Assembly (NCBI RefSeq): GCF_044324875.1 | Contig: NZ_CP172185.1 | Direction: 5' to 3' (one strand) | DNA length: 64,000 nucleotides | DNA from: Escherichia coli | GTDB lineage: Bacteria; Pseudomonadota; Gammaproteobacteria; Enterobacterales; Enterobacteriaceae | In this document: positions 23,450 to 53,549 of the stretch, piece after piece | Layout of the letters: each line of letters starts with the position of its first letter | How positions within the stretch are numbered: the first letter of the stretch is position 1 | The notes under the pieces: model-generated | What the model saw: the letters and a program-made list of their open reading frames with translations, nothing else | Database searches by the model: none | Told to the model about the DNA's origin: nothing | Program-made: the position numbers and the translations under genes

Positions 23450-23621
23450 GCTCAGTTCCTTATATTATTTCTATGGTAGCCAGTACCTGACCAGGTTCCA
23501 CTTCCTCCCCATTCTCCACCTTAAACTGGATAGACTGGCCCCCTGAATCTCCAGACAACCAGTATCACTTAAATAAGTGATAGTCTTAATACTAGTTTTT
23601 AGACTAGTCATTGGAGAACAG

Positions 23622-23987
23622 ATGATTGATGTCTTAGGGCCGGAGAAACGCAGACGGCGTACCACACAGGAAAAGATCGCAATTGTTCAGCAGAGCTTTG
23701 AACCGGGGATGACGGTCTCCCTCGTTGCCCGGCAACATGGTGTAGCAGCCAGCCAGTTATTTCTCTGGCGTAAGCAATACCAGGAAGGAAGTCTTACTGC
23801 TGTCGCCGCCGGAGAACAGGTTGTTCCTGCCTCTGAACTTGCTGCCGCCATGAAGCAGATTAAAGAACTCCAGCGCCTGCTCGGCAAGAAAACGATGGAA
23901 AATGAACTCCTCAAAGAAGCCGTTGAATATGGACGGGCAAAAAAGTGGATAGCGCACGCGCCCTTATTGCCCGGGGATGGGGAGTAA
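23622..23987 (+). CDS. insC: IS2 InsC (OrfA)
   Basis: [52 protein letters not shown]... Confidence 0.9.
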
Positions 23988-24850
23988 GCTTAGTCAGCCG
24001 TTGTCTCCGGGTGTCGCGTGCGCAGTTGCACGTCATTCTCAGACGAACCGATGACTGGATGGATGGCCGCCGCAGTCGTCACACTGATGATACGGATGTG
24101 CTTCTCCGTATACACCATGTTATCGGAGAGCTGCCAACGTATGGTTATCGTCGGGTATGGGCGCTGCTTCGCAGACAGGCAGAACTTGATGGTATGCCTG
24201 CGATCAATGCCAAACGTGTTTACCGGATCATGCGCCAGAATGCGCTGTTGCTTGAGCGAAAACCTGCTGTACCGCCATCGAAACGGGCACATACAGGCAG
24301 AGTGGCTGTGAAAGAAAGTAATCAGCGATGGTGCTCTGACGGGTTCGAGTTCCGCTGTGATAACGGAGAAAAACTGCGAGTCACGTTCGCGCTGGACTGC
24401 TGTGACCGTGAGGCACTGCACTGGGCGGTCACTACGGGCGGCTTCAACAGTGAAACAGTACAGGACGTCATGCTGGGAGCGGTGGAACGCCGCTTCGGCA
24501 ACGAGCTTCCGGCGTCTCCAGTAGAGTGGCTGACGGATAATGGTTCATGCTACCGGGCTAATGAAACACGGCAGTTTGCCCGGATGTTGGGGCTTGAACC
24601 GAAGAGCACGGCGGTGCGGAGTCCGGAGAGTAACGGCATAGCAGAGAGCTTCGTGAAAACGATAAAGCGTGACTACATCAGTGTCATGCCCAAACCAGAC
24701 GGGTTAACGGCAGCAAAGAACCTTGCAGAGGCGTTCGAGCATTATAACGAATGGCATCCGCATAGTGCACTGGGTTATCGCTCGCCACGGGAATATCTAC
24801 GGCAGCAAGCCAGTAATGGGTTAAGTGATAACAGGTGTCTGGAAATATAG
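23945..24850 (+). CDS. insD: IS2 InsD (OrfB) transposase
   Basis: 301-aa ORF overlapping insC in the -1 frame, DDE core. Confidence 0.9.
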
Positions 24851-25058
24851 GGGCAAATCCACTGGATATTAGTCCCGGTTGTTTCAGCATGAATTTCGTT
24901 AAACTGCTTCATTATTTCAATCAACCCAATGACGGTACTCTCCTGAACAGTGTCACCATTCTCCAGAAACGGGGCACTATCAGGTGCTGGTTTCCGATAA
25001 AATACACCAGGTAAAGGTGAAAGAATTTCTGTAACAGCCATAACATCCTCCATGTATA

Positions 25059-31682: not shown

Positions 31683-32687
31683 CTCTGAAGCAAACTTAAA
31701 ACATCTCTGCACCATTCCATGCACGCATAAAAGTCATTCCGGCATTTCATTTTACATAACATAAACAGAACAATAATAATTACAACAACATTCACACCAG
31801 CATTACAGAACACACTCTGTCTGTTGTTATCACCAGAAATATCAGGAGTATTTAAATGATTATTTCCTCACCTGCAGATTACAGGGACGCCGCAAAACAC
31901 AGACTGCCACGCTTTCTTTTTGATTACATAGACGGCGGGGCTGTTACTGAAAAAACCATGCATGAAAATATGACCTCTTTATCTTCGGTCAGCCTCCGGC
32001 AGCAGGTGCTTTGTGGCGCCGGAGCCCCCGAACTGAACACCACCATCCTTGATTCAGAATGGGCCATGCCTGTTGCTCTGGGCCCCGTCGGTGCCACTGG
32101 CATGTACGCCCGTCGTGGAGAGGTGCAGGCAGCCAGAGCGGCCTCAGCAATGAACATCCCTTATACTCTCTCAACCGTCTCCGTCTGCCCGATCGAAGAG
32201 GTCGCCGGACACGCTGACGGGCAACTGTGGTCCCAGTTATACGTCCTTCGGGATCGTGGTTATATGCAAAACGCACTTGAACGCGCCTGGACTGCAGGTA
32301 TGAAAACCCTGGTATTTACCGTCGACATGCCTGTGCCGGGCTCCCGGTACAGGGATAACCATTCAGGGATGTCAGGTCCCCACGCCACACTGCGTCAGTA
32401 TCTTCAGGCCGTTCTTCATCCCCGCTGGGCGCTGGATGTGGGAATTGCCGGTCGTCCTCTGTCATTTGGTAACATCGAAACGTACACCGGGCATAAAATG
32501 TCGATGGATGACTATATGGGCTTTATCAGCAAAAACTTTGATCCCTCTATTGCATGGAACGATCTCGAATGGATCCGTGATGGCTGGAAAGGTAAACTGA
32601 TAATAAAAGGGATCCTTGTTCCGGAAGATGCAAAAAATGCTGTACTGAACCGCCCCGGGTTTCCTGGAGAGTGTTTTATCTGTGAAC

Positions 32688-33578
32688 TCAGGCTGCCAGA
32701 TCATCGTTTCCGATGGAAGCATAATAAGATTTTTCTGCTTCTGCCGGTGGGATATGGCCCAGCCTTTCCAGCAATCGTCGATTGTTATACCAGTCCACCC
32801 ACGTGAGTGTGGCCAGCTCCACTTCTGTCCGGTTTTTCCAGCTCTTACGGTGTATTACCTCCGCTTTGTAAAGGCCATTGATGCTCTCCGCCATCGCGTT
32901 GTCATACGAGTCACCAGTACTTCCTGTTGATGCCAGTAATCCGGCTTCCTTAAGCCGCTGTGTGTAGGCCAGCGATACATACTGAGAACCTTTATCACTG
33001 TGATGGACTGTGCCGGACGGTCGACGGGCCCATAACGCCTGCTCCAGAGCATCCAGCACGAATGTCGTTTCCATAGACGATGAGACCCGCCACCCCACGA
33101 TGTATCCGGCAAACACATCAATGATGAACGCCACATAGACGACCCCCTCCCATGTGCTGACGTAAGTAAAATCAGCCACCCACAACTGGTCAGGACGTTC
33201 TGCCACAAACTGACGGTTTACGCGGTCGCCTGCGGCAACGGCTTTCCGGCTGACGGTAGTGCGGACCTTTTTACCCCGGAGAACACCGGCAAGTCCCATA
33301 ACCGCCATGAGGCGCGCCACTGTACATCTGGCTACCCTGATTCCTTCCCGTAACAACTGACGCCAGACTTTACGCACACCGTATACCTGATGATTCCCAT
33401 CGTATACGCGCAGTATCTCTTTCTTCAGCCAGTCATCGCGCTGCGCACGGGCACTGCGTTTATAAGGATGATGTCGCTGTTGCTGACAGTGGTAATACGT
33501 TGACGGGGCAATATGTAGTTCACTGCATACCGGTCCGACCCCGTACAGCTTACGCAGCTTATCCAGCAGTGGCATCAC
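32688..33578 (-). CDS. IS629 OrfB transposase
   Basis: 296-aa DDE ORF. Confidence 0.9.
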
Positions 33579-33901
33579 TTTTTCCAGAGGCGGTCGAACT
33601 CCGCCTTCGCAAAATAAGCGGAAGCCTGGCGAAGGATATCGTTACTGCGGCGCAGTTCACGATTTTCACGTTCCAGCTCTTTCAGACGCTGACGTTCAGC
33701 GGTGGTGAGCCCGCCATCACCGCCTCCGGTATCCCGCTCATGCTGGCGTACCCAGACACGCAGAGTCTCCGGTGTACAGCCAATCTTTGGGGCAATGGAA
33801 CAAATTGCCGCCCACTGTGAGTCATATTCGCCCTGACTTTCCAGAACCATACGAATCGCCCTCTGACGGACTTCGGGGGAAAAACGAGTATTTTTAGTCA
33901 T
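33575..33901 (-). CDS. IS629 OrfA
   Basis: [33 protein letters not shown]... Confidence 0.9.
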
Positions 33902-34412
33902 TCTGTTTACCTCTTTCTCAGGGAGTTTAGTCTCCAGGATTCCCGGGGCGGTTCAGTACGGCTTGGCGCGGATGGCATCATTGTCTCCAATCATGGCGGA
34001 CGTCAGCTTGATGGTGCCATCCCCACGGCCAGGGCATTACCGGCGATAGCAGATGCAGTGGGTGATGACATCACGGTACTGGCGGATTCAGGTATTCGTT
34101 CCGGTGTGGATGTGGTCCGGATGCTTGCTCTGGGGGCAAAAGGTGTGCTGCTGGGAAGAGCGTATATTTACGCACTTGCCGCTGCGGGAAAAAAAGGCGT
34201 TGAGCACCTGCTCAGACTTTATGCTGAAGATATGAAAGTCACCATGACGCTGATCGGCGCTTCTTCTCCCGCTGATATCAGCAGCAGAAATCTTGAATAT
34301 CTGGAAAAAGAATTCTCCCGACATTCATCATCCTGACCAAAGTAAACCAGGCACATATCCTCCATGCTCCCGGGACAACAGAGCGCAGTTCGGGCACTAC
34401 AGCCTTACTGGT

Positions 34413-39517: not shown

Positions 39518-41131
39518 TTATTTATTGGTGAGTACTACGTTCCATGGCAGGAGTTCGTCAACTCGGTTGGAAGGCCATTCCGGCAGTACGCTCAGGATAT
39601 GGCGCAGATACGCTTCCGGATCGATACCGTTCAGACGGCAGGTGCCGATCAGCCCGTACAACAGTGCTCCACGCTCGCTGCCGTGATCGCTGCCAAAGAA
39701 CATAAAGTTTTTCTTTCCGAGACAGACTGCACGAAGCGCTCTTTCCGCAGCATTATTATCCGCCTCCGCCAGACCGTCATCACTGTAATAACAGAGGGCA
39801 TCCCACTGATTCAGTACATAGCTGAACGCTTCGCCCAGTCTGGATTTTTTCGACAGCGTACCATTCTTCTCCACCATCCATTCATGCAGCGACGTCAGTA
39901 ACACTTTGCTTCGCTGCTGCCTGACGGCAAGACGCTCTGACTCCGGTAATCCCCGTATTTCATCCTCGATGGCGTACAGTTCACTGATTCGCTTCAGGGC
40001 TTCTTCTGCCGTCGCACTTTTGCTGCTGATGTATACATCGTGGATTTTTCGCCGGGCATGGGCCCAGCACGCAACTTCTGTCAGTGCACCACCTTCACGT
40101 TCTGCACTGAACAACCTGTCGTAACCTGTGAACGCATCCGCCTGCAGGATACCCCGGAAGGGGCGGAGGTGTTGCTCCGGGTGTTTCCCCTGCCGGTTCG
40201 GCGAGTACGCGAACCAGACCGCTGGAGGAGATGACGAACCCACATTGCGATCATCCCGGACATACGTCCAGATACGCCCTGTTTTCGCCTTTTTCTGACC
40301 CGGTGCCAGTACCTTTACCGGTGTGTCATCAGTGTGAACCTTGCGGGTGTTCATTACATAACGGTACAGGGCATCATTCACCGGTGTCATTAACTGGCAG
40401 CACGCGTCAACCCAGTTGGAGAGTAAGGCCCGGCTCAGTTCGACACCCTGGCGGGCAAAGATTTCACTCTGACGATACAGTGGCAGGTGTTCGCAGTATT
40501 TTCCCGTTAACACGCGGGCAAGTAACCCCGGGCCCGCGATACCACGCTCTATCGGACGGGATGGTGCCGGTGCTTCAACGATACAGTCACATTTTGTACA
40601 GGCTTTTTTTACCCGTTCTGTGCGGATCACTTTCAGGGCGCTGCTCACCAGTTCCAGTTGTTCTGCACTGACTTCCCCCAGATAATCCAGCTCACCGCCA
40701 CACTCCGGGCAACAGCTTTCTTCAGGCTCCAGGCGGTTTATTTCGCGGGGCAGATGCTCCGGTAACGGACGACGATGGCGTGACTGTCGCAACTGGCGGG
40801 GAACCTGCCGGTCATCCTCTCGCCCACTGTAACGATCGCTGTCCTGTTCGCGTTGCTTCAGCAGGGCCTCAGCCTGTTCAACTTCACGACGCAGTTTTTC
40901 AGAACGGGTACCGAACAGCATCCGGCGCAGTTTTTCTATCTGAGCCCGCAGATGTTCTATTTCCCGTTCATCTTCTTCGATCTTTTCTTCGGCACGTGCC
41001 AGCGCAGAACGCAGGAAGGCCTCCGTCTCTTCAACCAGACTCAGTTGTTGGTCTTTCTGACGGAGGGCTTCAGCCTGCTCAGAGAGCAACCTTTCCAGCT
41101 CTGCGATGCGAATGAGGTATTTCTGACTCAT
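39518..41131 (-). CDS. IS66-family transposase TnpC
   Basis: 537-aa ORF, CCPECGG motif. Confidence 0.9.
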   Translation of the reverse strand: MSQKYLIRIAELERLLSEQAEALRQKDQQLSLVEETEAFLRSALARAEEKIEEDEREIEHLRAQIEKLRRMLFGTRSEKLRREVEQAEALLKQREQDSDRYSGREDDRQVPRQLRQSRHRRPLPEHLPREINRLEPEESCCPECGGELDYLGEVSAEQLELVSSALKVIRTERVKKACTKCDCIVEAPAPSRPIERGIAGPGLLARVLTGKYCEHLPLYRQSEIFARQGVELSRALLSNWVDACCQLMTPVNDALYRYVMNTRKVHTDDTPVKVLAPGQKKAKTGRIWTYVRDDRNVGSSSPPAVWFAYSPNRQGKHPEQHLRPFRGILQADAFTGYDRLFSAEREGGALTEVACWAHARRKIHDVYISSKSATAEEALKRISELYAIEDEIRGLPESERLAVRQQRSKVLLTSLHEWMVEKNGTLSKKSRLGEAFSYVLNQWDALCYYSDDGLAEADNNAAERALRAVCLGKKNFMFFGSDHGSERGALLYGLIGTCRLNGIDPEAYLRHILSVLPEWPSNRVDELLPWNVVLTNK

Positions 41132-41161
41132 GACCGTTTTTATAATGCGGTCAGGCGTTTT

Positions 41162-41512
41162 TTACAACATTGTCAGTGAGTTAAGGCGGGATGTTTTTGG
41201 CTGACGCCAGTCCAGCTTATCGAGGAGCATTACCAGTTGCGAACGGGTAATGGATACCTTGCCGTCACGTACCGCAGGCCAGATAAACTGGCCTTCCTCC
41301 AGGCGTTTGGTGAACAGGCACAGACCATCAGCATCAGCCCAAAGAATTTTAACGGTGTCACCCCGTCGGCCACGGAAGATAAACAGGTGGCCGGAGAAGG
41401 GATTATCATTCAGCACATGTTGTACCTGTTCTCCCAGTCCGTTGAAGGATTTACGCATATCGGTAACGCCGGCAACGAGCCAGATACGGGTACCTGATGG
41501 GAGTGAAATCAT
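41162..41512 (-). CDS. IS66-family TnpB (Orf2)
   Basis: 116-aa ORF MISLPSGTRIWLVAGVTDMRKSFNGL... Confidence 0.9.
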   Translation of the reverse strand: MISLPSGTRIWLVAGVTDMRKSFNGLGEQVQHVLNDNPFSGHLFIFRGRRGDTVKILWADADGLCLFTKRLEEGQFIWPAVRDGKVSITRSQLVMLLDKLDWRQPKTSRLNSLTML

Positions 41513-41934
41513 CTTCCCCTCCCGCTCAGTTCGCGGATCAACACCGTGAGCAGCTCTGGCGATGGATTTTCCAGCGTCATGTTACCGTGATGGAACTCCA
41601 CCTTGCAGGAACTGGCACTGACTCTGGTCTGAGTGGAAGTGGATAAAGACGGCGCAATGGCCGCCACAGGTTCTTTCTGCTCATCCGGCGTTATTTCTAC
41701 AGGTAATAATTCAACGCCAGTGTCAGAAGAGGTCGTTACCGGAAGACGCCGCGAAACACGCCCTTCGTTCTGCCAGAGCCTGAGCCATTTGAAAATAACA
41801 TTATCATTGACGCCATTTTCACGTGCAATCTGTGCAACACAAGCTCCAGGTTGTGATGCCAGTTCAACCATACGAAGTTTGAATTCATTCGAATAGTTTT
41901 TACGAGGTTCTTTTCGCCAGTCCTGTAATTCCAT
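41509..41934 (-). CDS. IS66-family TnpA (Orf1)
   Basis: 141-aa ORF, 4-bp overlap with tnpB. Confidence 0.85.
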   Translation of the reverse strand: MELQDWRKEPRKNYSNEFKLRMVELASQPGACVAQIARENGVNDNVIFKWLRLWQNEGRVSRRLPVTTSSDTGVELLPVEITPDEQKEPVAAIAPSLSTSTQTRVSASSCKVEFHHGNMTLENPSPELLTVLIRELSGRGR

Positions 41935-42019
41935 ACTTAGATGTCCGTCTATATCAGATGGGCGTCTAAGTTACCAATTTTCGTCTGATGGCTACATACG
42001 GCGGTCAGTTTACGCTTAC

Positions 42020-42290
42020 CATTGAGGCAATTGAAAAACCACTTTCTTCCCTGCCTTACTCACTTTCCCGTCACATCCTGGAACATCTGCGTAAACTCAC
42101 CAGTCACGAACCCGTGATTGGCATTATGGGGAAAAGCGGGGCCGGTAAATCCTCACTCTGTAATGCACTGTTTCAGGGGGAGGTCACCCCGGTCAGTGAT
42201 GTTCACGCCGGCACCCGGGAAGTGCGGCGCTTCCGTCTGAGTGGCCACGGTCACAGCATGATTATCACTGACCTGCCCGGGGTGGGCGAG
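42020..42290 (+). pseudogene. YeeP-like GTPase gene fragment (second copy), truncated on both sides
   Basis: Encodes IEAIEKPLSSLPYSLSRHILEHLRKLTSHEPVIGIMGKSGAGKSS…DLPGVGE, near-identical to the full gene at 13161-14033; 5' end replaced by the IS66 end, 3' end cut by IS629 at GVGE. Confidence 0.7.
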
Positions 42291-42332
42291 TGAACCGCCC
42301 CGGGTTTCCTGGAGAGTGTTTTATCTGTGAAC

Positions 42333-43223
42333 TCAGGCTGCCAGATCATCGTTTCCGATGGAAGCATAATAAGCTTTTTCTGCTTCTGCCGGTGGGATAT
42401 GGCCCAGCCTTTCCAGCAATCGTCGATTGTTATACCAGTCCACCCACGTGAGTGTGGCCAGCTCCACTTCTGTCCGGTTTTTCCAGCTCTTACGGTGTAT
42501 TACCTCCGCTTTGTAAAGGCCATTGATGCTCTCCGCCATCGCGTTGTCATACGAGTCACCAGTACTTCCTGTTGATGCCAGTAATCCGGCTTCCTTAAGC
42601 CGCTGTGTGTAGGCCAGCGATACATACTGAGAACCTTTATCACTGTGATGGACTGTGCCGGACGGTCGACGGGCCCATAACGCCTGCTCCAGAGCATCCA
42701 GCACGAATGTCGTTTCCATAGACGATGAGACCCGCCACCCCACGATGTATCCGGCAAACACATCAATGATGAACGCCACATAGACGACCCCCTGCCATGT
42801 GCTGACGTAAGTAAAATCAGCCACCCACAACTGGTCAGGACGTTCTGCCACAAACTGACGGTTTACGCGGTCGCCTGCGGCAACGGCTTTCCGGCTGACG
42901 GTAGTGCGGACCTTTTTACCCCGGAGAACACCGGCAAGTCCCATAACCGCCATGAGGCGCGCCACTGTACATCTGGCTACCCTGATTCCTTCCCGTAACA
43001 ACTGACGCCAGACTTTACGCACACCGTATACCTGATGATTCCCATCGTATACGCGCAGTATCTCTTTCTTCAGCCAGTCATCGCGCTGCGCACGGGCACT
43101 GCGTTTATCCGGATGATGTCGCTGTTGCTGACAGTGGTAATACGTTGACGGGGCAATATGTAGTTCACTGCATACCGGTCCGACCCCGTACAGCTTACGC
43201 AGCTTATCCAGCAGTGGCATCAC
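42333..43223 (-). CDS. IS629 OrfB transposase
   Basis: 296-aa DDE ORF. Confidence 0.9.
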
Positions 43224-43546
43224 TTTTTCCAGAGGCGGTCGAACTCCGCCTTCGCAAAATAAGCGGAAGCCTGGCGAAGGATATCGTTACTGCGGCGCAG
43301 TTCACGATTTTCACGTTCCAGCTCTTTCAGACGCTGACGTTCAGCGGTGGTGAGCCCGCCATCACCGCCTCCGGTATCCCGCTCATGCTGGCGTACCCAG
43401 ACACGCAGAGTCTCCGGTGTACAGCCAATCTTTGGGGCAATGGAACAAATTGCCGCCCACTGTGAGTCATATTCGCCCTGACTTTCCAGAACCATACGAA
43501 TCGCCCTCTGACGGACTTCGGGGGAAAAACGAGTATTTTTAGTCAT
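43220..43546 (-). CDS. IS629 OrfA
   Basis: 108-aa ORF. Confidence 0.9.
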
Positions 43547-43600
43547 TCTGTTTACCTCTTTCTCAGGGAGTTTAGTCTCCAGGATTCCCGGGGCGGTTCA

Positions 43601-44608
43601 GTACTGCCGAATTAGCCCATTTGTGTTCTCATTTGTTCCCCGCTGCCAAGGACTCTGAGGATCGCAGAAGTAAACTTTAACGCCGGTGCTGACAGTAAAT
43701 TCTAGATGTCTGGCCAGTTCCATTCCTCTGTCCCATGTCAGTGATTTTCTGAGTTCTGACGGTAAACTCAGGAATTTGTCGGTAAGAGCCTGATTTACTG
43801 AGACAGAATCTTTGCCCCTGAGTCTAAGGATGATCGTATAACGTGATTTTCGGTCTACAAGTGTGGCTATATGAGAGTTTTTTGTACCTGAGACTAAATC
43901 GCCCTCCCAATGCCCCAGAGAGCGTCTGTTATCGATATTTCGGGAACGTTCGTGAATTGGTGTTCCGTTCACTATGTTAATCGTACCTCTTTCGCCTTTG
44001 CGGGTATGACGCCTGCCATGGCGAAGGCTATGCGACCGTCGCAGATGCTGTATATTCAGGTGGTGTAGCGCTTCACGGCTACGAAAGTACAGCGTTTTAT
44101 AAATTGTCTCAGGTGATATTCGCAGCGTTTTTTGACGTGGTTTTGTTCGCCTTAACCATCCTGATATTTGCTCTGGAGACCATTTCATCTCCAGCTTTTC
44201 CAGAACAAGCTTTCGCAATGGTAAATTTTGATCCAGTAAGCACGGTTTTGGCCTTTTCGCCATTCTGTTGGCTCGGTTATTAGCATCAACAGCTTTGTAA
44301 TAGCGTCTGCCCCGATTACGCTGAACTTCACGTGAGATCGTCGAAGGACTGCGATTCAGCGCAGTAGCTATCGCACGAATGCTCATTTTGGCTGACAAAC
44401 CAGCTCGTATCTCCTCGCGCTCAGACAGTGTCAGGTGAGCTACAGCCCGCTTACGCTCATGGGGTTTTATGCCGCCAGTATCCCTTAACATAGTGAAGAT
44501 CGTTCCGGGTTTTGAACCCAGGATATTCGCTATTTCACTGAAGCCTGTTCCGTTCTTCCATAGTTCAAAAACAGAGGCTTTTTCCTCTGCTGTAAATGTT
44601 CGTCTCAT
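43601..44608 (-). pseudogene. IS30 transposase, C-terminally truncated
   Basis: [38 protein letters not shown]…; last residues replaced by read-through into IS629. Confidence 0.85.
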
Positions 44609-44670
44609 TCAAAAAACCTCCGCAACCCCATGTTTTCACATAACTGTTGCGTTGACCAATTGAATCTACA
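43601..44670 (-). mobile_element. IS30, 3'-truncated
   Basis: Left IR TGTAGATTCAATTGGTCAACGCAACAG (reverse complement ends at 44670); transposase ORF from ATG 44608 runs straight into the IS629 end at 43600. Confidence 0.85.
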
Positions 44671-45005
44671 GTAGCCTTTTTTAATATTTCATTTTCCATT
44701 TCAATACGTTGTAGCTTTTTCCTGAGCTCACGGATTTCAATTTGTTCCGGGGTAATGGGGGAGGCTTTTGGTGTTTTTCCCTGCCGCTCATCACGTAATT
44801 GTTTCACCCATCGCGTCATTGTGGAAAGGCCGACATCCATAGCGCTGGCTGCATCTGCCACGGTGTAATTCTGGTCAACGACCAGTTGAGCGGATTCGCG
44901 TTTAAACTCTGCGCTGAAATTTCTTTTTTTCATTATGGCACCTGTGTTGTTCTGAGGTGAGCATATCACCTCTGTTCAGGTGGCCAAATTCAGTAAACCA
45001 CTTCA
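44671..45005 (-). mobile_element. IS911 5' fragment (left IR plus start of orfA), cut by IS30
   Basis: IR TGAAGTGGTTTACTGAATTTGGCCACC (reverse complement ends at 45005); orf[47 protein letters not shown]… from ATG 44933. Confidence 0.8.
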
Positions 45006-45164
45006 ATCACCCTGCGGGCATGCCGCAGGTCACTGCCGCTCAGGTTCTCCACCGTCACACCCGGTGGGATTGTTGGGTTTCTCATCGTGAGTTACCGGTT
45101 CAATATTCCAGACAGACTCGCGGTTCATTTAAGCATCCATGCCCGCCCTGAACTCCGGGCACAC
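45006..45164 (-). mobile_element. group II intron 5' fragment (first 159 nt), duplicate of 58800-58958
   Basis: Identical to the 5' end of the full intron (GTGTGCCCGGAGTTCAGGGCGGGCATGGATGC…); cut by the IS911 end at 45005. Confidence 0.75.
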
Positions 45165-45372
45165 TATAGGTCACATCACCGCACCACACCTGATTTGGCT
45201 CGGTCACGGCGAACTGCCGTTCAAGGTAGTTAGGGATAGCAACATGTTCATGACCACCACGTTTATACCGGTGAGTCGGCTGCTGACAGCTGACCAGCCC
45301 CAGCTCCTTGGCAATTTGACGTCCTTTCAGGCCTGGTGACCCACCTAATAACTCTGAGACTGCCTTCAGCAA
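45165..45372 (-). pseudogene. IS911 OrfB N-terminal fragment (5' exon of the intron insertion)
   Basis: …[36 protein letters not shown] ends one base before the intron 5' GTGTG; upstream IS body is missing and the fragment abuts the hsdR stop. Confidence 0.7.
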
Positions 45373-45386
45373 ACCATCACTCCTTT

Positions 45387-48300
45387 CTACCTACCCACCA
45401 TTCGTTGCATACTTTGCGTCCACGAGGCTTTAAATGCTGAATCTCCTGCGAACAACTTGTAGAGCTCAAGTTCATCTTTACGGCGTTGCAGCATGATTTC
45501 CTTGAGCATTTTTTCGAAGGCCAAATCTCGATTATGGGGATCTGGGTTGTTTTTGTATTTCGATTCGAAGTCAGGGTGATTGCGGATACTTTCAGCGATG
45601 TTCACGAACTTAACCTTTTGCTCTTCAGGTGTGGCACTCCAGCCCTGGAACCATCGCTCATTAAATGTGCGAATGATTTCATCCAGCGGGTCAGTTTCTT
45701 TTTCACCGCCATGCACCCCACGTGGGTTCGGATTTTGAGGATCAAGCTCCGCTTCTTGGTCACTAAGTTTAATGCTGTGGTTAAGCTTCACACGTTGCAA
45801 ACCGTATGAACTCAGATCGACAGAATCGAGAAGCTCATCAATAGCATCAGCATCGGGATCTTCCACTTTCAATTTCGGTATTAAAAACTTCAGGAACCAA
45901 AACAGTTTTTCCCAGCTGACCATTTCATAAGGCATGATAGAAGCCATCTGCCCATAGATTTTAACGAACTGTTTGGCTTTAATCTTAAAGTCCACTTTAG
46001 CTTCAGCTTCAAGATCTAGTTCATGGTCAAACCGCGCTGCGGCAATATCAATGATTGGACTGAGTGTTTGGGCGTCTTCATTCTTGAAATAACGCGTCAC
46101 AAAGTCTTCAACTTCATACCACTCGTACACACCGACATCGTCCATTTCATCTTTCAACTCGTGCAGTACGTTTATATCTGTAGCTTGGGACAATGACGTT
46201 GCTGTATAGAAAGGATCGAATGCTGATTGAATATCTTCAACCGAGTTGAAAAAATCCAGGATAAACAAGTCTTCTGTTTTCTTCCCTAGCTTAGGTGCAC
46301 TGCGATTGAGCCTAGATAGCGCCTGAACACACAAGACACTGGCGAGCTTCTTATCTACATACATGGCGCAAAGCTTAGGCTGGTCAAACCCAGTCAGATA
46401 CTTGTTAGCAACCACTAAAAGTCGATACTCATCGGTATCAAACATATCTTTGGTATCTGACTCGGCAAAACCATTAATATCTGCTTCGGTATATTCAATA
46501 CCATCAACTTCTTTGGTTCCTGAGAAAGCAATGGCAACTTTAAACGGGTTTCCTTGCTCCTCAAGTATTCGCCTTATCGCTTTGTAGTATCGAATGGCCG
46601 CCTCAATATTTTGAGTGACCACCATTCCTTTACCTTTACCTTTGAGCTTTTTCGTATTCACGACATGCGGAACAAAATGCTCCAGCATAATCTCTGCCTT
46701 GATATCAATTGTTTGCTGGCTTCGTTCTACATAAGCTCTGAGTTTTTTCTGCGCCTTTTTGGTATCAAACTCAGGGTTATCAGCAATTGATTTCTCAATC
46801 TCATAATAACTTTTGTACGTCGTATAATTTGCCAGCACATCCAAGATGAAGCCTTCTTCAATGGCTTGTTTCATCGAATACAAGTGAAACGGCTTGTAAG
46901 AGCCATCTTCTTGGCGTTGACCAAATTTCTCCAAAGTGCTGTTTTTTGGTGTCGCTGTAAATGCCAGGTACGACGCATTCCCGCGCATCTTACGCGATCT
47001 CATCGCCTGAAGGATTTTATCCTGAGCATCTTCTGCCTCTTCGACTTCAGACTTGCCCATCGCTCGGTTCATATTGTCATGCGCCGAACCAGACTGTGAG
47101 CTGTGTGCTTCATCGATGATCACTGCAAAGCGCTTGTCACTAAGATCGGCGATACCATCAATAATGAACGGGAATTTCTGAATCGTCGTTATAATAATCT
47201 TTTTGCCATTCTCCAGCGCCTGCTTAAGCTCAGAAGACTTATTCGCTGGGGCAATAATGTTCTTTACTTCAGAAAACTCTTTAATGTTATCCCGCAGCTG
47301 CTTGTCCAATAGGCGTCTATCGGTGACCACAATCACAGAGTCAAACAACGGCTGCTCCAAGCTTTTTCCGCCTGCCACATCAGACGAAGCAGGATAGGTT
47401 TCAATTAGCTGATAAGCTGCCCAGGTAATCGAGTTAGACTTACCTGAACCGGCTGAGTGTTGAATTAAGTAAGTCTGACCGACACCGTGCTGGGCGGCAT
47501 GGTCTACTAATTTTCTCACCACATCCAATTGATGGTATCGAGGAAAGAACAGGGTTCGCTTTGGTAATGGATCTTTGCTTGACCCATCCAGACGCACAAA
47601 ATGCTGAATAATATTCGCCAAGCTGTCTTTAGTGAATACTTCTTGCCATAGGTATGCCGTTTTATGGCCAGATGGATTCGGCGGGTTGCCTTGTCCAAGA
47701 TTGTGACCTTTATTGAACGGCAAGAAGAATGTACTGCTACCTGATAACTTGGTGGTCATATACACTTCGTCGGTATCGACCGCCATATGCACTAGGCAGC
47801 GGCCAAAGGTCAGCAATGGCTGAGTTGCATCCCGATCATCTCGATACTGCTTTTGGCCGTGATAACGTGCTGTTTGCCCGGTCCATGCGTTCTTCAACTC
47901 CAGCGTTATCAAGGGTATTCCGTTGATAAACAATACCATGTCGATTTCTTGTAGGGGATTTACCATGGAATAGCGCACTTGGCGAGTACAACTAAACACG
48001 TTATCTGCAAAGTTTTGCTTTACCTTCTCACTACTACTTGCCAAAGGGGCTGGATAGAGCAAATTGAAATGAGCATCGTCTACGCTTAGCCCTTTCTTAA
48101 GTAAATGAAGAATGCCATGCTTCTTAATCAGTCGGTCAAATCGTTCGAGTAACTTACGTTGCCAATCTGAGGGGTTGTTCTTTTGCAGTTTGGCCAACTC
48201 TACTTCTTGTGTCTTTTGCAGAAATTGCCAGAAAAAACGTTCATCAATGGCATATTGCATATTAAAGTCACTAGCAGCACCAATGAAGTATCCAGCACCC

Positions 48301-48404
48301 AGTGACTGCTGACTCAGTCCCTCTTTAAGCTCTTCAGCACTGATCCCAGCCAGACATTTCTCAATGGCCGACTCTAATGCTTGTTCATTGGTTTGACTGA
48401 CCAT
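45387..48404 (-). CDS. hsdR: Type I restriction enzyme R subunit (HsdR)
   Basis: 1005-aa ORF with N-terminal PD-(D/E)xK nuclease motif (DMVLF…ITLELK), SF2 helicase motifs ([12 protein letters not shown]-type IIDEAHSSQ); 14 bp after the upstream gene with AAGGGA RBS. Confidence 0.9.
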
Positions 48405-48418
48405 AATTGTAAATTCCC

Positions 48419-49582
48419 TTAATCAAAATTCTTCTGTTTCATTGCCTCAGCCGCTTTTTGCAGCGGTCCTTTTAAGGCTTTTTCTAACTTTGTCATCTGC
48501 TCTAAGTGCCACGCAACCGCTTGGGGCCAAGTCTCTTTGTTAAACCCGTCAGCTTTGGTCGAAAACTGGATACGGCAAGATTTCTTCTCATCCAGCCTCA
48601 TCCACTCAAGTTCTGCACCAAAAGTATGCTCAATGTCTTGTTTGGACTGACTCAACAAATCAAAAAGGTATTTATTCTCTTCGGTAACCCCACGGCTGAT
48701 CCAAAGCTCTACTCGAAGCTCTTTTTGCAGAAATATCAGGTTATACGGACATCCACTTAGCCCTGAGCCTGCTGATAACCAATGATCTTTGCTTGGGCTA
48801 ATGTTGTTATAGAGTTGGCAAGAGCTTTTCTGAAACGCCTCTAAGGCACGCTCCCAGTACTCGCGACGCACGGTATGGCGGTTTTTTAGTACCACTTCGG
48901 TGGTTTTTTCTTCCGCTTCCTTGGCATTAATGCCGATCATCAACTCTTTCGCTTCTGGCGTTGGAATGATCTGGTCAATATTAATCAGTAGCTGTTCACC
49001 CAGTGAATAAGGCGTGATTTTGAAGCAGGCAATGCTAATGCCTTGACCCAATAACCACAGCGCGGTGCTGGTCACTTCTTTGCGAAAGTTTGCCGCAACT
49101 AACATAATGCGCTGGCTGTTACCCAGGTTGAGCTTTAACTCATCGAGATCGGGCGCATCCAAAAACTCACATATTCTAGCAGAGGCACTTGCAGGGGTAT
49201 TAAACAAGTCAACCTCTCCTGTTACAGGCTCATAGCGGTCTAAGTACTGCTGGTAAATTTCAACGATTTGCGCTTTGGTTAAACTTGCGCAGTAGGAGGC
49301 ATATTTAAGCGCCTGCCACACCACATCGCGGCCACTATCGTCCAGCTTGTTTTCAATAATGACCAAGTTGCCATCTTTATCCAGTGCCAGTAAATCTAAG
49401 CGTTCACGGGTGTCATCAAAGCCATCGAACTCTTTTTGAATAATCAGCAGCTCTTCACCCAGTGCGGAAGGCTCGTGTGCCAACCATTCCTGAAGATTTT
49501 TGCGCTCAGTAAAGCCCAACTCACTGAATCTCTTCGTCTTAACCGGACTAATCCTGTTGGTCTGATAATTTACCGTGAACAT
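48419..49582 (-). CDS. hypothetical protein embedded between hsdS and hsdR; N-terminal PD-(D/E)xK-like nuclease motif, family not assigned
   Basis: 387-aa ORF; motif LDLLALDKDGNLVIIENK (D…E-x-K); no Walker A; ancestral hsdS stop is 9 nt before its ATG; same position that PrrC occupies in the EcoprrI locus but not PrrC-like in sequence. Confidence 0.7.
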   Translation of the reverse strand: MFTVNYQTNRISPVKTKRFSELGFTERKNLQEWLAHEPSALGEELLIIQKEFDGFDDTRERLDLLALDKDGNLVIIENKLDDSGRDVVWQALKYASYCASLTKAQIVEIYQQYLDRYEPVTGEVDLFNTPASASARICEFLDAPDLDELKLNLGNSQRIMLVAANFRKEVTSTALWLLGQGISIACFKITPYSLGEQLLINIDQIIPTPEAKELMIGINAKEAEEKTTEVVLKNRHTVRREYWERALEAFQKSSCQLYNNISPSKDHWLSAGSGLSGCPYNLIFLQKELRVELWISRGVTEENKYLFDLLSQSKQDIEHTFGAELEWMRLDEKKSCRIQFSTKADGFNKETWPQAVAWHLEQMTKLEKALKGPLQKAAEAMKQKNFD

Positions 49583-49646
49583 ATTCGCTTCCTATTGCTC
49601 AACCTGAACCGCCCCGGGTTTCCTGGAGAGTGTTTTATCTGTGAAC

Positions 49647-50537
49647 TCAGGCTGCCAGATCATCGTTTCCGATGGAAGCATAATAAGCTTTTTCTGCTTC
49701 TGCCGGTGGGATATGGCCCAGCCTTTCCAGCAATCGTCGATTGTTATACCAGTCCACCCACGTGAGTGTGGCCAGCTCCACTTCTGTCCGGTTTTTCCAG
49801 CTCTTACGGTGTATTACCTCCGCTTTGTAAAGGCCATTGATGCTCTCCGCCATCGCGTTGTCATACGAGTCACCAGTACTTCCTGTTGATGCCAGTAATC
49901 CGGCTTCCTTAAGCCGCTGTGTGTAGGCCAGCGATACATACTGAGAACCTTTATCACTGTGATGGACTGTGCCGGACGGTCGACGGGCCCATAACGCCTG
50001 CTCCAGAGCATCCAGCACGAATGTCGTTTCCATAGACGATGAGACCCGCCACCCCACGATGTATCCGGCAAACACATCAATGATGAACGCCACATAGACG
50101 ACCCCCTGCCATGTGCTGACGTAAGTAAAATCAGCCACCCACAACTGGTCAGGACGTTCTGCCACAAACTGACGGTTTACGCGGTCGCCTGCGGCAACGG
50201 CTTTCCGGCTGACGGTAGTGCGGACCTTTTTACCCCGGAGAACACCGGCAAGTCCCATAACCGCCATGAGGCGCGCCACTGTACATCTGGCTACCCTGAT
50301 TCCTTCCCGTAACAACTGACGCCAGACTTTACGCACACCGTATACCTGATGATTCCCATCGTATACGCGCAGTATCTCTTTCTTCAGCCAGTCATCGCGC
50401 TGCGCACGGGCACTGCGTTTATCCGGATGATGTCGCTGTTGCTGACAGTGGTAATACGTTGACGGGGCAATATGTAGTTCACTGCATACCGGTCCGACCC
50501 CGTACAGCTTACGCAGCTTATCCAGCAGTGGCATCAC
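49647..50537 (-). CDS. IS629 OrfB transposase
   Basis: 296-aa DDE ORF. Confidence 0.9.
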
Positions 50538-50860
50538 TTTTTCCAGAGGCGGTCGAACTCCGCCTTCGCAAAATAAGCGGAAGCCTGGCGAAGGATATCG
50601 TTACTGCGGCGCAGTTCACGATTTTCACGTTCCAGCTCTTTCAGACGCTGACGTTCAGCGGTGGTGAGCCCGCCATCACCGCCTCCGGTATCCCGCTCAT
50701 GCTGGCGTACCCAGACACGCAGAGTCTCCGGTGTACAGCCAATCTTTGGGGCAATGGAACAAATTGCCGCCCACTGTGAGTCATATTCGCCCTGACTTTC
50801 CAGAACCATACGAATCGCCCTCTGACGGACTTCGGGGGAAAAACGAGTATTTTTAGTCAT
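50534..50860 (-). CDS. IS629 OrfA
   Basis: 108-aa ORF. Confidence 0.9.
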
Positions 50861-50914
50861 TCTGTTTACCTCTTTCTCAGGGAGTTTAGTCTCCAGGATT
50901 CCCGGGGCGGTTCA

Positions 50915-51526
50915 TTGGGAAGTTGTGCCTCTAAAAAGGTTGGCGGTCTTGAGCCCTTCTGTGAAAGTTTCAAATAGAAAGTCCAAAGAATTAGTTACTT
51001 TCTTAGCGATAGAAAAGGTTTCAACAGATGGATTTATTGATCAAGATACATTAATGCCTATATGTGATGTGAGCCAAGGTTTTACGGTTTTTAACCGGGG
51101 GGATGTGATTGTTGCAAAAATTACACCTTGCTTTGAAAATGGGAAATCTGCTTGGCTTAACAATCTTCAAACTGAGTTTGGTTACGGCTCAACCGAGTTT
51201 CACGTTTTAAGATGTGGTCAGAGAATTATAGGAAGTTTTCTCTACTTAATCGTTAGTTCGCCCCTTTTTCTTAATGCCGGTGAGGCTATGATGACTGGTT
51301 CAGCTGGTCAGAAGCGCGTGCCTAGTTCATTTATCCAAAACTTTCCTACCGCAATTCCCGGAGTTGCAGAGCAAGAAAAAATAGTATCAAAGGTAAAAGA
51401 GCTGTTTTCACAGATTGATGTTGTTGTGGCTTCTACGGTAAATCAAATCGAAAAGCTCAAAGAATACAAAACCACCCTGATCAACAGCGCCGTGACAGGA
51501 AAAATAAAAATCACCCCAGAAATGGT
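50915..51526 (+). pseudogene. hsdS: hsdS 3' segment (second target-recognition domain and C-terminal conserved region), inverted relative to the rest of hsdS
   Basis: Plus-strand ORF …VPLKRLAVLSPSVKVSNRK… continues the minus-strand hsdS 5' part when reverse-complemented (…DWIGDIPEH + WEVVPLKRL…); bounded by inverted IS629 copies. Confidence 0.8.
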
Positions 51527-51580
51527 TGAACCGCCCCGGGAATCCTGGAGACTAAACTCCCTGAGAAAGAGGTAAACAGA

Positions 51581-51907
51581 ATGACTAAAAATACTCGTTT
51601 TTCCCCCGAAGTCCGTCAGAGGGCGATTCGTATGGTTCTGGAAAGTCAGGGCGAATATGACTCACAGTGGGCGGCAATTTGTTCCATTGCCCCAAAGATT
51701 GGCTGTACACCGGAGACTCTGCGTGTCTGGGTACGCCAGCATGAGCGGGATACCGGAGGCGGTGATGGCGGGCTCACCACCGCTGAACGTCAGCGTCTGA
51801 AAGAGCTGGAACGTGAAAATCGTGAACTGCGCCGCAGTAACGATATCCTTCGCCAGGCTTCCGCTTATTTTGCGAAGGCGGAGTTCGACCGCCTCTGGAA
51901 AAAGTGA
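51581..51907 (+). CDS. IS629 OrfA
   Basis: 108-aa ORF. Confidence 0.9.
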
Positions 51908-52794
51908 TGCCACTGCTGGATAAGCTGCGTAAGCTGTACGGGGTCGGACCGGTATGCAGTGAACTACATATTGCCCCGTCAACGTATTACCACTGTCAGC
52001 AACAGCGACATCATCCGGATAAACGCAGTGCCCGTGCGCAGCGCGATGACTGGCTGAAGAAAGAGATACTGCGCGTATACGATGGGAATCATCAGGTATA
52101 CGGTGTGCGTAAAGTCTGGCGTCAGTTGTTACGGGAAGGAATCAGGGTAGCCAGATGTACAGTGGCGCGCCTCATGGCGGTTATGGGACTTGCCGGTGTT
52201 CTCCGGGGTAAAAAGGTCCGCACTACCGTCAGCCGGAAAGCCGTTGCCGCAGGCGACCGCGTAAACCGTCAGTTTGTGGCAGAACGTCCTGACCAGTTGT
52301 GGGTGGCTGATTTTACTTACGTCAGCACATGGCAGGGGGTCGTCTATGTGGCGTTCATCATTGATGTGTTTGCCGGATACATCGTGGGGTGGCGGGTCTC
52401 ATCGTCTATGGAAACGACATTCGTGCTGGATGCTCTGGAGCAGGCGTTATGGGCCCGTCGACCGTCCGGCACAGTCCATCACAGTGATAAAGGTTCTCAG
52501 TATGTATCGCTGGCCTACACACAGCGGCTTAAGGAAGCCGGATTACTGGCATCAACAGGAAGTACTGGTGACTCGTATGACAACGCGATGGCGGAGAGCA
52601 TCAATGGCCTTTACAAAGCGGAGGTAATACACCGTAAGAGCTGGAAAAACCGGACAGAAGTGGAGCTGGCCACACTCACGTGGGTGGACTGGTATAACAA
52701 TCGACGATTGCTGGAAAGGCTGGGCCATATCCCACCGGCAGAAGCAGAAAAAGCTTATTATGCTTCCATCGGAAACGATGATCTGGCAGCCTGA
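51904..52794 (+). CDS. IS629 OrfB transposase
   Basis: 296-aa DDE ORF. Confidence 0.9.
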
Positions 52795-52836
52795 GTTCAC
52801 AGATAAAACACTCTCCAGGAAACCCGGGGCGGTTCA

Positions 52837-53543
52837 CAATGCTCTGGAATATCTCCAATCCAATCCACACCGGAGTCTTTCATTGGCACATTGGGATCAA
52901 GCCCTTGGGTCACCGCCTGTTGGATGATGATCTGCTTATGTTCTTTTAACAGATTAATTTGCTTTTCTTTGATCGAAATCGCTTCGTCGATTAGAGCGAT
53001 TTTCTTGTCTAGGAAGTTGGCGATACGGGTTTGTTGCTCATGGGGAGGAACAAACGTCTTAAAACTCAGAAATGAATCTTTAGGAATTGTATTTCTCAGG
53101 CCACGATAAAGCGGTTTAAGCATCTTTTTTGCATCAAGGTTCATATAAAAATAGTATAAAAACCTATTATCAAAATTGTCATTTAGTTCAAAAACGGTAT
53201 ATGCACCAGTAATCATCCCATTAAATGGCGACAACCCAACAGTTCTGGGTGTTTCTTCCACGTCGAACAAGCAGAAAATGAAATCTCCACACTGCACTTC
53301 TTGATAAGTATCGAACTCTGCTGGGAACTTACCCTCTGGGTTTTCCATATCACGCTTAATCACACCTCTGAGAGTAAGCGATAGCAAATCATATTCGCTT
53401 GAGCGTTTTCCAACCTGTTTTTTCTTCAAGCGAAAGATGTGCTTATTAGCTAATAAGCTCCAAGACGCAGGAATATCCCCTAGCCATTCAACACCTGAAT
53501 CCTTATAAACCTCATATTTCGGCATTTCAGAAATCTTCATCAT
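52837..53543 (-). pseudogene. hsdS: hsdS 5' part (first target-recognition domain and central conserved region)
   Basis: MMKISEMPKYEVYKDSGVEWLGDIPASW… with repeated KDSGV(E/D)W(L/I)GDIP motif at the start of each TRD; interrupted after …DIPEH by IS629. Confidence 0.85.
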
Positions 53544-53549
53544 AACGAC

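Follow-up and report, generated by a model that had tools for sequence, protein, structure and literature searches.

In the 64,000-nucleotide stretch of Escherichia coli DNA analysed here (the window), the specificity gene hsdS of a type I R-M operon in a genomic island is divided by two opposed copies of an IS629-group insertion sequence (IS), and the part of the gene that lies between them is inverted. A first-pass annotation had placed the 5' part on the minus strand (52837-53543) and the 3' part on the plus strand (50915-51526), between opposed IS copies, and both placements are confirmed. We regard two insertions, followed by homologous recombination between the inverted copies, as the probable route to this arrangement, and the original type I specificity has most likely been lost in the strain. 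In window coordinates, the features concerned are as follows.

45387-48404, minus strand: hsdR (1005 aa), restriction subunit; NCBIfam hsdR match and annotation
48419-49582, minus strand: DUF4268 gene, between hsdS and hsdR; Pfam DUF4268 in homologous loci, and annotation
49592-49604, minus strand: hsdS 3' tail, GGT (49602-49604, ACC on the plus strand) and then TGAGCAATAG, which includes the native stop
49605-50914, minus strand: IS629-group copy 3; its IRR end (49605) is on the side of the hsdS tail and the DUF4268 gene, its IRL end (50914) faces the inverted segment
50915-51526, plus strand: inverted hsdS segment (segment X), from codon 236 up to a point 7 nt short of the stop, encoding the second target-recognition domain (TRD2) and distal helix
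51527-52836, plus strand: IS629-group copy 4; its IRL end (51527) faces the inverted segment, its IRR end (52836) lies against the hsdS 5' fragment
51581-51907, in copy 4: orfA, 108 aa
51904-52794, in copy 4: orfB, 296 aa, overlapping orfA
52837-53543, minus strand: hsdS 5' fragment with TRD1 and the central helix (codons 1-235 and 2 further nt), ending in the TTG/CAA duplication at 52837-52839
53550-55973, minus strand: hsdM (807 aa), type I R-M methyltransferase subunit and first gene of the operon; NCBIfam hsdM match

The interrupted operon and its rebuilt ancestor

The surroundings of the broken gene are those of an hsdS, with hsdM directly upstream and hsdR downstream, beyond both IS copies and a DUF4268 gene whose position between hsdS and hsdR is conserved in this operon type. 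The hsdM assignment is further supported by a subunit M annotation in the collinear locus of strain GF4, and by Pfam HsdM_N and N6_Mtase in homologous loci. When both IS copies and one copy of each 3-bp duplication are taken out in silico and 50915-51526 is re-inverted, hsdS becomes a single uninterrupted 441-aa open reading frame, which reads ...DWIGDIPEHWEVVPLKRL... and closes with PEMVEQ and the stop. The repaired protein matches Pfam Methylase_S twice (residues 115-197 and 235-404), its two halves align end to end (E = 4e-13), and it has two TRDs, each with a conserved helix after it, such that the full-length, two-domain HsdS in continuous frame anticipated by the first-pass annotation was indeed recovered.

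The reconstruction also agrees with alleles found in nature. Five complete E. coli genomes match all 2313 bp of the rebuilt locus in a single unbroken alignment, the sole difference being a private SNP in segment X at window position 51011 (A versus G), and the repaired HsdS is essentially identical to the natural intact allele WP_000975823.1. The 5' fragment by itself is 100% identical to hsdS in six complete genomes. Against GF4 the window is collinear once segment X and the two IS copies are set aside: segment X aligns in reverse (L006, 26613-26002) with both flanks collinear, and copies 3 and 4 are both absent from the equivalent sites. One detail of the break required correction, in that the split position stands as first described but the interrupted codon is W236, and the 5' reading frame continues across the IS boundary, forming a 248-aa ORF (52797-53543, minus strand) of native residues 1-235 and 13 IS-encoded residues.

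Signs of rearrangement are seen in the trinucleotides that border the IS copies. Read directly from the sequence, these are ACC at 49602-49604, TTG at 50915-50917, GGT at 51524-51526 and CAA at 52837-52839, giving ACC-IS-TTG for copy 3 and GGT-IS-CAA for copy 4; segment X accordingly starts with TTG and ends with GGT. The flanks are thus reciprocal, as had been claimed, and undoing the inversion restores a TTG duplication around one IS and an ACC (GGT) duplication around the other. Both pairs would be reciprocal by chance with a probability of about (1/64)^2, or 1/4096, and in GF4 each of TTG and GGT is present as a single copy. An inversion by homologous recombination between inverted IS copies would be expected to show inverted repeats that are identical, duplications that are reciprocal and an ancestor that can be rebuilt exactly, and all of these are found here.

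The same flanks bear on whether the IS-X-IS unit of 3.2 kb was inserted whole as a composite transposon, an idea suggested by a passenger flanked by two inverted IS copies. The outer flanks, ACC and CAA, form no direct repeat around the unit, the passenger supplies just the part that the interrupted gene lacks, with the whole of that gene accounted for, and the unit has no other occurrence among 5426 E. coli genomes and 72,556 plasmids. The hsdS reconstruction refutes this origin, to which we attach next to no probability.

The insertion sequence copies

Copies 3 and 4 are each 1310 bp in length, which is the reference length of IS629, and direct comparison finds them to be exact reverse complements separated by 612 bp. 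Both start with TGAACCGCCCCGGG and end with CCCGGGGCGGTTCA, consistent with the TG...CA inverted repeats of the IS3 family and IS629 group. The IS3 transposase profile NF033516 (NCBIfam) is matched over profile positions 1-86 and 93-369, and the ALIL frameshift pseudoknot (Rfam) is found at 51862-51978 in copy 4 and at 50463-50579 in copy 3, with 116 bits each. Both copies therefore display the architecture of the IS3 family (overlapping orfA and orfB, -1 frameshifting, and a DDE transposase), and from the presence of both reading frames with the pseudoknot they look intact. An identical third copy (copy 2, 42291-43600) lies 6 kb off and is a potential donor.

The name IS629 given by the first-pass annotation holds in the form of an IS629-group isoform, an assignment that length, reading frames and transposase profile support. 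ISfinder counts as isoforms those elements with at least 95% nucleotide identity to the type sequence. With sampled copies, rather than the type sequence, as the standard, nucleotide identity is 97.6% to a copy on a plasmid of S. boydii and 95.8% to the S. sonnei Ss046 pSS copy; a copy that carries the label 'IS629 transposase OrfB' is 95.6% identical, and IS1203-labelled copies are about 95% identical. On these figures the element would be a putative isoform, 95-97.6% identical to the sampled Shigella and IS1203-labelled copies. Target duplications of 3-4 bp are described for IS629 (PMC3271280); TTG/TTG and GGT/GGT flank the copies here once the segment is re-inverted, and copy 1 of the window has a 4-bp GTAC duplication.

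Order of events, mechanism and orientation

The history we favour would begin with an intact minus-strand type I R-M operon in the island, in the order hsdM, hsdS, DUF4268 gene and hsdR. An IS629-group element would have entered hsdS at codon 236, at the start of the second TRD, duplicating TTG; a second copy would then have entered in the opposite orientation 7 nt ahead of the hsdS stop, duplicating GGT; and recombination between the identical inverted 1310-bp copies would have flipped the 612-bp piece, leaving on each IS one flank from each duplication. Other genomes hold related states. The draft GCA_040713135.1 has the insertion at the TTG site, with no second IS at the GGT site: its contig L003 terminates as hsdS5'-TTG-IS, and the order on contig L019 is IS-TTG-X-GGT-TGAGCAATAG-DUF4268-hsdR, in which the 3' piece has kept its junction with the downstream gene. 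The TTG junction also occurs in the complete genome 23CRST013, which has kept hsdM and lost hsdR, which shows the TTG insertion to be the older of the two. Other drafts, among them GCA_027706465.1 and GCA_036632015.1, have both insertions, with segment X on contigs of 863-866 bp bordered by IS ends, and the same 248-aa product is encoded in at least four draft assemblies. Homologous loci gathered through a look-up of the DUF4268 protein all have an uninterrupted hsdS, and none carries an IS at the ACC/GGT site. Separately, two loci (L017, L018) with adjacent 248-aa and 191-aa ORFs were considered as scars of IS excision and rejected; they have another TRD1 allele, which is frameshifted, and no connection with the IS events.

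The reciprocal flanks, the continuous frame and the natural TTG-only intermediate all fit a stepwise history and so support the earlier proposal of two insertions followed by recombination; the insertions were most likely sequential. That the inversion was a separate step of homologous recombination is likewise most likely, although we infer this step rather than observe it, since no sequence was found with both copies and an un-inverted segment, a state that short-read drafts cannot reveal as they break at the IS.

Reciprocal flanks fit more than one mechanism, however. The same structure would arise from a single insertion if intramolecular transposition with inversion came next, the general lesson being that reciprocal duplications prove a rearrangement but do not specify its mechanism. 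By such a one-step origin, a single IS at the TTG site would have attacked the GGT site 609 bp off on the same molecule, copying the IS and inverting the segment at once; the route could have been replicative intramolecular transposition 'in trans', or a reaction by way of a reactive IS-dimer junction. This model predicts exactly the flanks observed, a-IS-rc(t) ... rc(a)-IS-t, and its precursor, the single-insertion state, occurs in nature. The 100% identity between the two copies is in keeping with it, but is equally expected from a recent paste-in by copy 2. Deletions adjacent to IS copies also lie close by (187 bp beside copy 2 in the island of the window, and 640 bp beside the IS of 23CRST013); on our own reading these would fit events mediated by a transposase or by an IS-excision enhancer, and they slightly raise the prior for non-homologous routes. 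Against this, elements of the IS3 family (IS911, IS2, IS3, IS629) move by copy-out/paste-in through a circular intermediate, the products of which are simple insertions and not inversions, and to our knowledge inversions of the Shapiro type are not a documented outcome for the family. This mode of movement is the sole ground on which we prefer the two-step route, and with it in mind we judge the one-step origin unlikely, even though it is the reading preferred for equivalent IS26 structures (PMC4471558). In O157 genomes, matched duplications were kept by 21 of 47 IS629 copies (PMC3271280), and one reading of that figure, ours and not that of its authors, is that insertions of IS629 are commonly followed by rearrangement.

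The orientation of the segment merits separate consideration. Segment X is bordered by an IRL end both to its left and to its right, the draft contigs L021 and L022 likewise show one and the same IS end on either side, and the inner junction sequences are identical in either orientation. Junction PCR and short reads are therefore blind to orientation, and only reads that cross a whole IS are informative, a caution that extends to any segment bordered on both sides by the same IS end. The inverted orientation is known from one closed assembly. A search for segment X with 150 bp of IS on each side returned no record at 80% coverage or above (5426 complete E. coli genomes; PLSDB, 72,556 plasmids), and hence no natural orientation polymorphism is documented; nor did the same complete genomes include a closed genome with both IS copies. 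It might be argued that the inverted orientation is not fixed, the culture being mixed or the assembler having made a choice across a 1.3-kb perfect inverted repeat, in which case the events reduce to two simple insertions. The like junctions would permit this, and every short-read draft is broken at the IS copies; but the 204-aa product of the segment is recorded, as an exact match, on one 5.75-Mb E. coli contig, which implies a long-read closed assembly, and long reads normally cross 1.3 kb. We consider such an unfixed orientation doubtful. With the two insertions and subsequent inversion retained as the preferred history, continued flipping of the segment is plausible from the sequence, as the remaining 1.3 kb of perfect inverted homology could allow re-inversion, though this would not restore the gene.

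Consequences and comparison with known systems

To judge from the sequence, the native HsdS, with its TRD1 plus TRD2 specificity, would be destroyed in either orientation, and the loss of a type I specificity may lower the barrier to foreign DNA. The locus is a clean but ordinary case of IS-driven gene decay, of a kind already known and with no new type of system; its value lies in being a fully rebuildable example of IS elements dismantling a defence gene stepwise, with natural representatives of the intact allele, the single insertion and the double insertion, the last of which is seen inverted in the closed sequence of the window.

Phase-variable type I hsdS shufflons share with this locus a TRD-encoding hsdS segment that lies between inverted repeats and is in principle invertible. 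Here, however, the repeats are insertion sequences and not hsdS-internal, a second hsdS copy is lacking, and the annotations of the equivalent GF4 region include no dedicated recombinase. A shufflon was rejected, as by sequence logic and reconstruction the two IS copies interrupt hsdS in both orientations, neither of which yields an intact gene.

A closer likeness is the Tn5-truncated hsdS of EcoDXXI, the truncated subunit of which dimerises and recognises a palindrome (PMC3874165, summarising Meister et al. 1993). In both cases hsdS is cut by a transposable element close to where the C-terminal TRD begins, or inside that TRD, leaving TRD1 and the central helix, and the two hsdS halves here share homology with each other from end to end. 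The present case differs in R-M family and in having hsdR downstream of two IS copies. By this analogy the 248-aa half-subunit (TRD1 and the central dimerisation helix) could conceivably dimerise with HsdM and methylate, perhaps even restrict, a new palindromic target, which we think improbable; its ORF is unchanged in several assemblies and in 23CRST013. If true, the half-HsdS would represent a natural change of specificity by transposition and not simple gene loss.

With the inversions between opposed IS copies that were analysed for IS26 (PMC4471558) the locus has in common identical opposed IS copies bracketing an inverted segment, swapped duplications and an exactly rebuildable IS-free ancestor. 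IS26 (IS6/IS26 family) is replicative, whereas the IS here belongs to the copy-out/paste-in IS3 family, for which homologous recombination after two insertions is favoured over one-step transposition; in addition, the inverted segment here is only 612 bp and lies inside one gene.

Finally, IS629 and IS1203 are known to inactivate genes and diversify genomes in E. coli O157 and Shigella, as in stx2::IS629 (PMC3271280, PMC7430833). Our case shares with these the element group, the 1310-bp length, duplications of 3-4 bp, gene inactivation and many copies without matched duplications; it differs in occurring in another E. coli lineage, in having a type I R-M specificity gene as its target, and in involving an isoform about 95% identical to the O157-type IS1203-labelled copies.

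Structure and reconstruction of the divided hsdS gene

The locus is part of an E. coli genomic island rich in IS elements and comprises a type I restriction-modification operon on the minus strand (hsdM, 807 aa; hsdS; a DUF4268 gene; hsdR, 1005 aa). As the first-pass annotation had proposed, hsdS is divided by two inverted IS copies, copy 3 (49605-50914, minus) and copy 4 (51527-52836, plus), which are 1310 bp each, exact reverse complements, and separated by a 612-bp hsdS segment (50915-51526, here termed X). Direct reading of the sequence returned the same reciprocal flanks that had been claimed, ACC (49602-49604) and TTG (50915-50917) for copy 3 and GGT (51524-51526) and CAA (52837-52839) for copy 4; two such trinucleotide pairs have a chance expectation of roughly 1 in 4096. 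Each copy contains two overlapping reading frames (108 and 296 aa) that match the NCBIfam IS3-family transposase model over its length, a full-length Rfam ALIL frameshift pseudoknot, and the termini TGAACCGCCCCGGG...CCCGGGGCGGTTCA. Judged by full-length identities to plasmid copies (95.6% to one labelled 'IS629 transposase OrfB', 95.8-97.6% to Shigella plasmid copies, about 95% to copies labelled IS1203), the element is best read as an IS629-group isoform.

The gene was rebuilt in silico by joining the minus strand from 53543 down to 52837, the plus strand from 50915 to 51526 and the minus strand from 49604, with one TTG and one GGT copy taken out. Removal of the IS copies and re-inversion of X in this manner gave the uninterrupted HsdS that had been predicted: a single 441-aa ORF ending in PEMVEQ, with two Pfam Methylase_S domains (residues 115-197 and 235-404) and halves that align to each other end to end (E = 4e-13). 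The IS insertion point falls at codon W236, where the second target-recognition domain begins. The decisive evidence came from a rebuilt 2313-bp query, from the 3' end of hsdM across hsdS as far as the DUF4268 gene start, which matched over its whole length and in one piece in five complete E. coli genomes (DLI.6n, GF4, MS 119-7, LR-31 and BEN5202), whose annotation gives hsdS as restriction endonuclease subunit S (WP_000975823.1). The sole difference, A for G at 51011 (Met to Ile), lies in X and is private to the window, G being present in GF4 and in the draft contigs L019, L021 and L022. The window and GF4 are collinear on both sides, except for the two IS copies, absent there in GF4, and the reversed 612-bp segment; GF4 has one copy each of the duplicated TTG and GGT trinucleotides.

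Operons of this type (window 45387-56009; loci L008, L010-L012 and L015-L018) are widespread in E. coli. Their HsdM is unusually long at 807 aa, the DUF4268 gene between hsdS and hsdR has a weak NucS-like match, and their hsdS alleles show whole-TRD1 swaps, with 436-aa and 441-aa forms; a frameshift is present in one of these alleles, which comes from two metagenome or SRA contigs.

Insertion history and origin of the inversion

At least four NCBI draft assemblies encode the 248-aa product of the hsdS 5' part, in which 13 IS-encoded residues follow native residues 1-235; the contigs concerned end within the IS. In GCA_040713135.1, a second, 7105-bp contig (L019) runs from an IS end through TTG, X, the native stop, the DUF4268 gene and hsdR up to the next IS629; its GGT site is without an IS and X is native-oriented relative to the DUF4268 gene, so that this strain has the mid-gene insertion only. 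In GCA_027706465.1 and GCA_036632015.1, X lies on 866- and 863-bp contigs with IS ends at both sides, and both insertions are evidently present. The sister complete genome of 23CRST013 (NZ_AP045773.1) has the hsdS5'-TTG-IS junction in common with the window, has lost window 40814-51526, and with it hsdR, X, copy 3 and the DUF4268 gene, and carries window 51527-58986, the block extending from hsdS5' across hsdM to the intron, in reversed orientation with two IS629 copies, inverted relative to each other, at its ends. Of its breakpoints, one is within the old partial IS629, and beside the other IS 640 bp (window 59754-60393) are gone. Since the single-insertion draft has TTG only and 23CRST013 retains the TTG junction, the oldest event is evidently the insertion at TTG, that at GGT being later; by the same assemblies, the island's IS629 copies have been rearranged more than once.

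The first-pass annotation held that two independent insertions in opposite orientations were followed by homologous recombination between the inverted copies, which would have flipped X. The structure is what such insertions and a reciprocal exchange would leave, and yet it would equally be the product of a single step, in which the first IS would transpose intramolecularly into the GGT site and invert X as it did so; the end structures are identical and cannot be separated by sequence alone, and for equivalent flank patterns of IS26 the one-step reading is preferred (PMC4471558). What would tell the routes apart is an intermediate in which X is still native-oriented between the two IS copies, a state that short-read drafts are unable to show. 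However, IS3-family transposition is a copy-out/paste-in process that proceeds through a circular intermediate and results in simple insertions, and an identical donor copy lies 6 kb away; for these reasons we consider insertion followed by recombination the probable route.

A point absent from the first-pass annotation is that X faces the IRL (orfA-proximal) end of both copies, so that the inner junction strings are the same pair whichever way X lies; junction PCR and short reads are therefore blind to its orientation, and only molecules spanning the whole 1310-bp IS are informative. This is visible in L021 and L022, the X-bearing contigs of the double-insertion drafts: one and the same IS end is matched at both sides of the contig, in opposite orientations. 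The orientation of X in the window rests on the long-range information of the assembly, and the exact X product on a single 5.75-Mb contig suggests a long-read assembly. The IS-X-IS arrangement was not found in any closed genome or plasmid of the searched collections (5426 complete E. coli genomes; PLSDB plasmids).

Other mobile elements in the window

Further IS629 copies and mobile-element features, by window coordinates
12845-13041: IS102 RNA (Rfam, 88 bits, minus strand)
23531-24861: IS2-type element, 1331 bp, 5-bp CTGGA duplication; not at the GF4 counterpart site
32646-33955: IS629 copy 1, 4 nt differences from copies 2-4
42291-43600: IS629 copy 2, identical to copies 3 and 4
56690-56776: group II intron domain (Rfam, minus strand)
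58959-59753: partial IS629, 795 bp; other 515 bp absent nearby

Compared with GF4, copy 1 represents a simple insertion flanked by a 4-bp GTAC duplication, while copy 2 is also present in GF4 and has no matched duplication in either sequence. The 187 bp that follow the IRL end of copy 2 in GF4 (positions 19813-19999 of its locus, L006) are missing from the window, which cuts the adjacent IS30 transposase gene (43601-44608) to 336 aa versus 383 aa; the gap looks like an IS-adjacent deletion. The group II intron adjoins the partial IS629 (combined region 56690-59753), and its GF4 equivalent has an annotated RT/maturase gene. A stretch of 188 bp (58800-58986) extends into the first 28 bp of the partial IS629 and recurs, at 95% identity, at 45006-45192. 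We take the 23531-24861 element to be IS2-type from its ends, and the IS102 RNA match hints at an element of the IS903/IS102 type in the upstream portion of the island.

Consequences for the restriction-modification system

Full-length HsdS cannot be made with X in either orientation; as such, ongoing flipping of X, which 1.3 kb of perfect inverted homology makes plausible, would have no obvious phenotypic output. Both IS copies precede hsdR in the operon; their polarity need not be complete, since in stx2::IS629 the element did not abolish downstream transcription (PMC7430833). The 248-aa ORF retains TRD1 and the central helix. Truncated type IC HsdS subunits, one of them truncated by Tn5, form dimers with a palindromic recognition sequence (PMC3874165); the truncation here is comparable, and on this precedent it is conceivable, if improbable, that specificity has been changed rather than lost. 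Overall, the locus is a textbook type of IS-mediated disruption and inversion rather than a new kind of system.
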